A DNA stretch of 32,000 nt from Puniceicoccales bacterium. Lineage in GTDB: Bacteria > Verrucomicrobiota > Verrucomicrobiia > Opitutales > JAIRLG01. The stretch is from positions 1 to 32,000 of the forward strand of contig JAITRB010000007.1 of the NCBI GenBank assembly GCA_031288595.1, given 5' to 3'. The notes under the pieces are model-generated. The model saw only the letters and a list, made by a program, of their open reading frames with translations. It did no database searches and was not told where the DNA came from. The position numbers were made by a program, and so were the translations under genes. Shown one piece after another: positions 10,101 through 10,463 of this stretch (the first letter of the stretch is position 1; every line of letters starts with the position of its first letter).

Positions 10101-10463
10101 ATGGCGAGCAGTTCGGCCGTATTATCGATGGAGCAAGGGATAGGGAAAGCGTCTTGGGTGCTGGGAAAGAATTTCTTGGGGGTCTTTCTTCCATGCGCGA
10201 TGGCCCTTTGCGAGGCAAAGCTGGCGCCGGCGCGGAGCGCCGGCGCCCAGGTCGCAGCACCCCTTCTGAAAAAGGGGGCTGCGACTGGCCATCGCGCAGG
10301 AGGAAGCTAGAAGATCTCTCTCAGCTAGAGGGATTGGGGATTGCTGAAGAGAGCTCTTTTTTCGGGCGATGGGGGTGGAGGGGAACCCGAGATGTGTCCA
10401 AGATCAGGCCCCATCGCTTTTATGAGATCTGGGGAATTTGGAGGACTAAAGGGGCGGATGCAC
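10101..10463 (+). repeat. copy B of the ~350-nt paralogous non-coding unit; contains cloverleaf element 3
   Basis: Aligns with 4030-4378 (see copy A). The T6 run lies at 10357-10362. The unit ends 20 nt before the ftsK stop codon. Confidence 0.8.
10194..10298 (+). repeat. cloverleaf nested-palindrome element, copy 3 (paralogue of copy 1)
   Basis: Closing stem of 12 bp, 10194-10205 with 10287-10298. Hairpins: CTTTGC-GAG-GCAAAG (10206-10220); GGCGCCGGCGC-GGA-GCGCCGGCGCC (10223-10247); a long hairpin at 10250-10286 with one bulged A. Confidence 0.85.

Follow-up and report, generated by a model that had tools for sequence, protein, structure and literature searches.

Intergenic cloverleaf repeats conserved in shape rather than sequence in a small group of termite-gut Verrucomicrobia

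Introduction

REP elements, or repetitive extragenic palindromes, are single hairpins of 20-40 nt with a conserved GTAG or CGTC tag at one end (PMC3733652). GTAG-tagged REPs are abundant in Opitutus terrae, which belongs to the same class as the source of the DNA studied here (PMC3733652), and the hairpins of REPINs are kept by compensatory change (PMC3116915). Here we describe a cloverleaf-forming element at positions 10194-10298 of a 32,000-nucleotide stretch of a Puniceicoccales bacterium (assembly GCA_031288595.1, contig JAITRB010000007.1, positions 1 to 32,000; hereafter the window). This element is one member of a clade-restricted family of ~100-nt intergenic repeats, found only in a small group of termite-gut Verrucomicrobia. 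What sets the family apart is its four-way-junction plan, in which shape is conserved and sequence is not. We know of no prior description of it, and a literature search on cloverleaf or four-way-junction repeats in Verrucomicrobia found no relevant report.

Like REPs, BIMEs and REPINs, the elements are abundant, GC-rich, strictly intergenic, able to form stable hairpins on either strand, often located between operons or at 3' ends, and species- or clade-specific. Those repeats consist of an imperfect hairpin (two in a REPIN) in near-identical copies within a genome, whereas the present elements form a four-way junction with three hairpins in fixed size order, carry no tag and are largely unrelated in sequence. 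Assignment to the tagged REPs was rejected: neither GTAG/CTAC nor CGTC/GACG is present at the ends of any element, and the elements are ~100 nt long with four helices. No RAYT or transposase domain was found among 18 window proteins, within the 32 kb of the genome covered. With MITEs (miniature transposable elements with inverted repeats; Correia/NEMIS, ERIC/IRU, BOX and RUP) the family shares a length of 100-150 nt, intergenic location, presence that varies among relatives and terminal inverted repeats able to pair as a long closing stem; an effect on mRNA processing or stability, which MITEs can have, would be a further point of likeness. MITEs differ in having shared terminal repeats, a target-site duplication and a parent insertion sequence, whereas the conserved part of the present elements is the internal three-hairpin plan. 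A classical MITE was rejected, as the outer closing stems all differ and no duplication is visible, within the power left by sequence divergence.

Results

A first-pass annotation of this DNA compared two cloverleaf copies, copy 1 (E1) at 4125-4229 and copy 3 (E3) at 10194-10298. Both are present there and are 86% identical over 103 nt. RNA folding returns the proposed cloverleaf, a closing stem around three hairpins, in both, with a minimum free energy of -83.9 kcal/mol for copy 1 (z -9.4 against dinucleotide shuffles) and -82.0 kcal/mol for copy 3 (z -7.8). The reverse strands fold as a mirror image with similar stability, and DNA energy parameters give the same fold. We define the family by a closing stem, a short hairpin (S; 6-7 bp, triloop), a medium hairpin (M; 6-11 bp, triloop) and a long hairpin (L), in that order, with at most 5 junction nucleotides. 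E3 has this composition, with 4 unpaired junction nucleotides in total (Table 1).

Table 1. Coordinates of the cloverleaf elements and associated features of the window (S, M, L: short, medium and long hairpin; CM: covariance-model score; L numbers: contigs from relatives).
Feature	Position	Strand	Structure or evidence	Context
E1 ("copy 1")	4123..4231	+	14-bp closing stem; S 6, M 11, L 17 bp; three GGA loops	
E2 (probably "copy 2")	6599..6715	+	closing stem 22 bp; S 7, M 6, L 18 bp; CM 72 bits	between murE stop and putative atpA promoter; orthologue in L106
E3 ("copy 3")	10194..10298	+	closing stem 10194-10205/10287-10298, 12 bp	
E3 short hairpin (S)	10206-10220	+	6 bp, loop GAG	
E3 medium hairpin (M)	10223-10247	+	11 bp, loop GGA	
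E3 long hairpin (L)	10250-10286	+	16 bp, bulged A, 6-nt loop	
E4	13003..13102	+	S 6, M 9, L 17 bp; CM 82 bits	between ftsK start and tRNA-Val; orthologue L001:475-567
E5	17602..17700	+	S 7, M 7, L 18 bp; CM 79 bits	between convergent ybeY and lipase_3 gene; orthologue L004:3566-3659; those of L104/L105 cut by contig ends
E6	20226..20328	-	S-M-L strand is -, hairpin order reversed on +; CM 84 bits	46 nt after tRNA-Leu; relative L104:167-261 on other side of tRNA gene
CTTGCC-N17-TTTAGA(T) motif	6564-6598	-	probable atpA promoter	also L106 380-435; L107 2880-2940; L108 4290-4347
Putative ancestral ~360-bp segment	10100..10465	+	sequence homology	3' of ftsK, with E3; orthologous element in L001 at same locus
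Putative derived duplicate segment	4029..4385	+	homology to 10100-10465	with E1
Pseudogene of small lipoprotein-like ORF	9859..10100	+	tblastn 58-60% identity; in-frame stop and frameshift	

Of 106 aligned columns, 13 differ between the two copies. Nine of the substitutions lie in stems; these are transitions throughout, and their outcome is two double-compensated pairs, four wobble-preserving changes and a single broken pair. When the same substitutions were placed at random on stem positions, 4.6 +/- 0.9 pairs were broken (P(<=1) = 3e-4) and 0.4 pairs were changed on both sides and kept (P(>=2) = 0.03). In an alignment of both copies with their orthologue from the relative L001, 99.2% of pair cells hold standard pairs, compared with 32-46% in slid-register controls.

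The individual differences were re-examined with L001 as outgroup. The double change from C4125:G4229 to U10194:A10298 was described correctly and carries little weight, since it affects the terminal pair and adjoins an indel. In the middle hairpin, G4157.U4175 of copy 1 does correspond to G:C in copy 3, but the change had been read in the wrong direction, copy 3 being ancestral; nor does this hairpin gain a base pair, as had been stated, for it has 11 pairs in both copies. Its outermost pair, A4154:U4178 in copy 1 and G10223:C10247 in copy 3, was substituted on both sides in a compensatory manner. Where the long hairpin of copy 1 has two U.G pairs, copy 3 does have C:G, with the direction again reversed (C:G became U.G in copy 1). 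The loop of the first hairpin is GGA in one copy and GAG in the other, as reported. That of the third hairpin differs too (GGA and CUGAAA), but what had been taken for a loop change is partly disruption, because two apical pairs are lost in copy 3. This loss, by which the loop grew to six bases, had been overlooked, as had a bulged A in the long hairpin of copy 3 and a G:C to G.U change at its base.

Copies 1 and 3 belong to a larger set. An inverted-repeat scan combined with a sliding-window fold revealed that six structures of the window are extreme fold outliers, with energies of -72 to -110 kcal/mol (z -9 to -11.5), whereas all other window multiloops were weaker than -65 kcal/mol. Each of the six consists of a closing stem around exactly three simple hairpins in S-M-L order; with the exception of E1/E3, they are too dissimilar for detection by BLAST. 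Beyond the window, 12 more complete elements (one degenerate) were found in related Puniceicoccales contigs, together with several further ones truncated by contig ends. We regard the existence of a fold-selected element family as established, with high confidence.

The anatomy of the family was determined from a census of 16 elements. The closing stem measures 8-22 bp and usually ends on its inner side in CTTTG/CAAAG or CCTTG/CAAGG, and its outer sequence is different in every element. The S hairpin (6-7 bp, consensus GNNYCC-NNN-GGRNNC) and the M hairpin (6-11 bp, mostly GCCYGC-NNN-GCRGGC) each have a 3-nt loop in 16/16 elements. The sequence of these 32/32 triloops is not conserved, in agreement with the annotation's view that the loops are not the conserved part: they are always 3 nt and may have any sequence. 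The L hairpin is free in sequence, with a usually purine-rich 5' arm and a loop of mostly 3-4 nt, and measures 16-25 bp (9 bp in one element). The junction holds 2-5 unpaired nucleotides in total. Of 708 stem positions, 689 are Watson-Crick pairs, 15 are G.U and 4 are A.C, with 0 transversion mismatches and 14 bulged bases.

Selection on this fold was evaluated in six related element pairs (E1/E3, E3/L001b, E4/L001a, E2/L106a, E6/L104a and L004b/L107a), comprising paralogues and orthologues at 63-91% protein identity. Double-sided changes that preserve the pair numbered 10, compared with 1.9 +/- 1.2 in the null (P<5e-5), and broken pairs numbered 12, compared with 25.5 +/- 1.9 (P<5e-5); 8 of these 12 fall where closing stems fray at their outer ends. 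Differences were present at 36 of 91 unpaired positions (40%) and at 65 of 548 paired ones (12%). The count of compensatory against disruptive substitutions that the annotation had proposed for a larger set of copies thus places disruption well below the neutral expectation.

Covariation across the family was assessed for the closing stem, S and M after 13 canonical elements had been aligned with MAFFT without fitting to the structure, a naive fixed-register comparison of distant elements having been discarded as unreliable. In this alignment 99.3% of pair cells were paired, compared with 82.8% in shuffles (0/500 as high) and 34-53% in slid controls. Changes on both sides occurred in 16 of 24 pairs (53 cells), compared with 7.8 pairs and 15.9 cells in shuffles (0/500). 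A covariance model built from the same alignment scored canonical members at 55-84 bits on the strand that reads S-M-L and at 21-34 bits on the other, and gave no match on distant relatives and controls. It misses E1, E3 and L001b, which have the same architecture and form a separate sequence subfamily. The claim that selection acts on pairing and not on loop sequence is therefore supported by copies 1 and 3, and far more by the wider family: the fold is under purifying selection, the sequence is not.

For the distribution of the family, contigs from relatives (L001, L002, L004, L005 and L101-L109) were scanned. An FtsK-based scan of genome contigs returned three Puniceicoccales loci; the other 77, mainly Planctomycetota, served as negative controls. 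The fold scan was positive in L001 (two elements, orthologues of E3 and E4), L002, L004 (two), L005 (two), L104, L106 and L107, while L105 holds just the cut-off start of one E5-like element. The covariance model added L004:12612-12721, located 3' of ftsK, and the degenerate L002:21-127. In the more distant Puniceicoccales L101, L102, L103 (Coraliomargarita) and L108/L109 the fold scan detected no element, and the murE-atpA spacer of L108/L109 represents an empty site. It returned a count of 0 for three-hairpin elements, both in the 1.18 Mb of loci from Planctomycetota and other sources and in 1.28 Mb of simulated sequence with the dinucleotide content of the window. A family-wide DNA pattern gave 10 chance matches in GC-rich phage contigs among the viral contigs searched, none with a cloverleaf.

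Several members depart from the standard form. L002:21-127 (minus strand) is a degenerate E4 orthologue that has kept its closing stem and short hairpin, with M and L replaced by G/C and A/T homopolymer runs; as it lies near a contig end, it may be an assembly artefact. L005 carries two tandem elements 41 nt apart (9331-9438 and 9480-9554) between lpxK and tRNA-Val, the latter a miniature with a 9-bp long hairpin; the corresponding element of the window and of L001 lies on the opposite side of tRNA-Val. A partial element at 2100-2158 of L106, ~85 nt after the atpA stop with no xseB between, shares the closing stem (GCGCGACGGCC) and the upstream flank (GGGAAATTTTTTCTTT) of copies 1 and 3 and differs in its inner hairpins. 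Contigs of related bins repeatedly end in or beside elements (3' end of L104, both ends of L105, 3' end of L106), so that the elements appear to break short-read assemblies. Gene callers also set spurious open reading frames (ORFs) over elements, for example at 162-584 of L001 and 3978-4382 of the window.

Elements are kept at orthologous positions between genomes at 63-69% protein identity. In two genomes with ~63% protein identity, E5 and L004:3566-3659 are found in one and the same spacer, between convergent ybeY and lipase genes. Closing stem (CCGCTGCCTTT), short hairpin (GAGCCC) and medium hairpin (GCCCG) are common to both; most of the long hairpin has been rewritten, yet it is still fully paired. 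Other loci show turnover. The E6-type element is located past the 3' end of tRNA-Leu in the window and between tRNA-Leu and the lipase gene in L104. Downstream of ftsK, the window and L001 hold an E3-type element in one orientation, and L002 and L004 hold canonical-type elements in the opposite orientation. From time to time an element shifts to another site or is duplicated together with its flanks. Comparison of filled with empty spacers revealed no target-site duplications or clean insertion boundaries, in a comparison whose power is limited by spacer divergence.

Copying with flanks is exemplified by copy 1. Judged by homology, the two copies did not insert independently; they are paralogues inside a segmental duplication of ~357 bp. 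The identity between the two segments is 77.5% upstream of the cloverleaf, 86% inside it and 64% downstream, so conservation of the cloverleaf exceeds that of its flanks only moderately. The locus 3' of ftsK bears, adjoining the segment with E3, the 3' end of a decayed lipoprotein-like ORF that is intact (113-124 aa) and convergent at the same place in L001 and L002. The last codons of this pseudogene (KMARSCLYY*) recur at 4027-4050 (KMARACPY), where the last ~8 codons of the ftsK-locus ORF open the segment with E1; this recurrence suggests that copy 3 sits at the ancestral locus and that copy 1 is the duplicate. The L001 outgroup assigns the ancestral state at the middle and long hairpins to copy 3; most M and L changes arose in copy 1, as C-to-U transitions tolerated as wobble. 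Copy 1 would have derived from copy 3 by the duplication and then drifted through pair-preserving transitions.

The duplicate landed in a 1.4-kb non-coding gap (3034-4460) between glgP and xseB. In L107-L109 the dxs gene (619 aa) occupies the same place, directly after xseB, and no dxs remnant is detectable in the gap of the window. The absence of dxs and the pseudogene 3' of ftsK suggest ongoing gene loss in the source genome. Some 50-70 nt after the cloverleaf, a motif CTCT(C)TTTTTTCG(R)NNGATG occurs in both window segments (4275-4295 and 10352-10372) and in L002 (~2710-2735, plus strand), and is missing from L001 through deletion; the motif could fold as a weak AT-rich hairpin with a T-run behind it. 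Neither patterns with 3 mismatches nor a blastn self-search detected further members of the copy 1/3 subfamily in the window. Pattern GATGGCCCTTTGCNNNGCAAAG had 0 matches in viral contigs, and pattern GGCCCTTTGCNNNGCAAAGCT had 8 chance matches in metagenome contigs, none with a cloverleaf.

Other classes of structured nucleic acid were compared with the family. At the gathering threshold, Rfam 15 matched only two tRNAs in the window, and sub-threshold hits (E up to 10, positions 3800-10600) were noise only, such as CRISPR-DR34 with 19.8 bits on part of a long hairpin and miRNA models on E2. A CRISPR repeat was rejected. A tRNA combines a 7-bp acceptor stem with D, anticodon and T arms; a tRNA-like identity was rejected, as the elements have closing stems of 8-22 bp and triloops and are not called by ARAGORN or Rfam RF00005. 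Cuckoo RNAs were rejected as relatives because their loops are conserved. Integron attC sites resemble the elements in the conservation of structure over sequence, a length of 57-141 nt, recognition as a folded single strand and branched long forms. They differ in their RYYYAAC/GTTRRRY cores, extrahelical bases, single orientation between cassettes and adjacent integrase; here no AAC/GTT cores are present, the closing stems having CTTTG/CAAAG or GGCC/GGCC at their ends, the surrounding genes are of housekeeping type, and attC was rejected. Intrinsic terminators are likewise very stable GC-rich structures after genes and before the next promoter, but consist of a single hairpin with a U-run, whereas the elements are branched with four helices and in some cases lie in divergent spacers. 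Lacking a U-tract, the elements are not canonical intrinsic terminators; a terminator scan lists none of them, and the flanks inspected hold no T-run. Retron msr-msd RNA shares the closing duplex around short hairpins followed by one long hairpin. The elements are half the usual retron size, occur ~1 per 5 kb and have no adjacent reverse transcriptase; a retron was rejected, gene tables and Pfam scans around all elements showing no such gene.

All elements are intergenic, with a density of ~1 per 5 kb, and most follow the 3' end of a gene. E2 ends ~10 nt upstream of a CTTGCC-N17-TTTAGA motif that is found just upstream of atpA in four genomes and probably serves as the promoter of this gene; translation of atpA probably starts at the second Met (~6533) and not at the first ATG of the ORF. 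A simple scan found no excess of canonical terminators in the region (25 found, 20.9 expected) and none at gene ends beside elements. In the clearly co-directional contexts (E1, E2/L106a, L107a, E3 and E6), the hairpin order on the upstream gene's sense strand is always long-medium-short.

Discussion

The reading that we put forward, with confidence evenly poised between acceptance and doubt, is that the family is a REP-like structured extragenic repeat that marks transcript boundaries as a barrier to read-through or exonucleases. The elements would be transcribed within the flanking messages, in the manner of REP and BIME, and would fold there into a very stable structure, with the 3' end of one transcription unit before it and the next unit's promoter after it. 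By stopping read-through or attack by 3' exonucleases, this structure would shield neighbouring units from each other. The intergenic 3'-end position, the adjacency to the putative atpA promoter, the lack of an excess of canonical terminators and the orientation trend all fit such a role.

Several observations weigh against it. No U-tract follows any element on either strand in the flanks inspected. The spacing from the upstream stop codon varies widely (21 to ~590 nt), two or three elements (E4/L001a, L104a) occupy promoter-side spacers between divergent genes, and the orientation trend comprises only 4-5 independent loci. Moreover, the ratio of G.U to A.C is 15:4 when read on the S-M-L strand (binomial ~0.02), which is the antisense strand in co-directional contexts; this asymmetry is the opposite of what a sense RNA predicts. 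The S-M-L strand is the plus strand in 5 of 6 window elements and the plus strand has positive GC skew, so a replication-linked C-to-T bias would explain the 15:4 ratio equally well. Near-perfect pairing, strict triloops and folding of both strands suit single-stranded DNA as well as RNA.

Another view, which we consider possible though on the unlikely side, is that the elements are selfish non-autonomous mobile DNA of the REPIN, MITE or IS200/IS605 type, whose folded single strand would be read by a trans-acting enzyme, so that the fold would be kept for mobility and not for the host. The DNA-like traits that speak for it (97% Watson-Crick pairs, C-G-closed triloops, equivalent folding on both strands and with DNA parameters) are joined by the density of ~1 per 5 kb in one clade only, the different position of the E6-type element in the window and its close relative L104, the difference in sequence and orientation of the L002/L004 element downstream of ftsK, and the frequent breaks of related-bin contigs inside elements. 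Precise transposition is nevertheless not what the copies suggest: only E1 and E3 are near-identical in the window, and they arose through a 357-bp duplication that includes flanks. There is also no conserved terminal sequence, no visible target-site duplication and no transposase in 32 kb or in related loci, the last being weak evidence from a small sample, and the retention of orthologues with compensation over 63-69% protein identity resembles host-level purifying selection. A further alternative is the absence of any selection, in which case copies 1 and 3 would stem from the recent duplication of a palindromic, GC-rich stretch and their pairing would be due to chance. The two copies are indeed paralogues inside a larger duplicate, and the restriction of their nine stem substitutions to transitions makes G.U outcomes likelier by chance; yet broken pairs remain too few (P=3e-4 for <=1) with this transition spectrum retained, family-wide covariation exceeds all 500 shuffles, and the same architecture is built from unrelated sequences time and again but does not occur in 2.4 Mb of controls, leaving this account a negligible probability.

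Two functional alternatives to the boundary role fare poorly as well. Independent small RNA genes expressed from the S-M-L strand would account for the G.U/A.C asymmetry and for the higher covariance-model scores on that strand, and a trans-acting retron-like form would take the closing stem as a1/a2 repeats, S and M as msr and L as msd, since a retron non-coding RNA has short hairpins and then a long one inside a closing duplex. We think this very unlikely: no promoter or terminator signals are tied to the elements, no loop or junction nucleotides are conserved that a partner could read, none of the 18 elements has a reverse transcriptase gene beside it, ~1 per 5 kb is unlike any known small-RNA gene family, and mutational bias can account for the strand asymmetry equally well. 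A DNA-level site that organises the chromosome, either as an extruded cruciform or four-way junction or as duplex bound by nucleoid or topology proteins, has a model in the BIMEs, which are bound by IHF and gyrase. It would suit the equal folding of both strands, the perfect junction with almost no unpaired bases and the intergenic, regular spacing of roughly once per operon. Extrusion of a three-hairpin cloverleaf from duplex DNA is, however, energetically far less likely than that of a simple cruciform; wobble-type transition mismatches are tolerated and transversions never, which suits single-strand folding over duplex reading; and the free variation of the sequence excludes sequence-specific duplex binding. 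We give this site small chances.

A more speculative extension, which we regard as doubtful, is that the elements form a novel class of shape-defined, sequence-free genetic punctuation, in which a dedicated protein would read the perfect four-way junction by its geometry. By analogy, the reader may be a nuclease or recombinase specific for junctions, with single-stranded DNA as its substrate, much as IntI recognises attC, or else a structure-specific RNase that cuts polycistronic transcripts in the way of mitochondrial tRNA punctuation. Reading by geometry would explain why arm lengths are fixed, loops are triloops and junction bases are near zero while the bases themselves change freely.

Whatever their role, the elements show with unusual clarity how selection can act in nature on the shape of a nucleic acid and on nothing else, with ~45 bp per element kept at 97% Watson-Crick pairing through nearly complete sequence turnover. 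A transcript-boundary role, if true, would reveal how operons are delimited in a lineage without a visible excess of canonical terminators in the one region scanned; mobility, if true, would add a structurally new REP- or MITE-like DNA with a four-way-junction substrate. In practical terms, the elements appear to break metagenome assemblies of these termite-gut bacteria and yield spurious ORF calls.

Genomic setting

The window carries housekeeping genes (glgP, xseB, atpA, murE, ftsK, lpxK, ybeY and the lipase_3 protein gene, further atpB/F, ftsW, RNase E/G, ddl and ftsQ), and its FtsK is 85% identical to proteins of termite-gut metagenome bins, the nearest named relatives being MAGs labelled "Puniceicoccales bacterium". 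ARAGORN and Rfam report three tRNA genes, at 9629-9705, 13304-13380 and 20096-20180, and no others. Exact-protein look-ups for the window xseB product and P0006 gave no match, and no plasmid or phage similarity was found. The ATP synthase genes are split: atpA (4977-6563, minus strand) stands alone between murE and xseB, in a murE-atpA-xseB order kept in relatives, and atpB/atpF (20692-22748, plus strand) lie ~14 kb away. The GC skew of the plus strand is positive over the entire window (cumulative +1.94), and the genes in 0-20 kb are mostly on the minus strand; if the plus strand is the leading strand, these genes are head-on to replication. The replication direction of the window is also relevant to how the G.U strand asymmetry of the elements is read.

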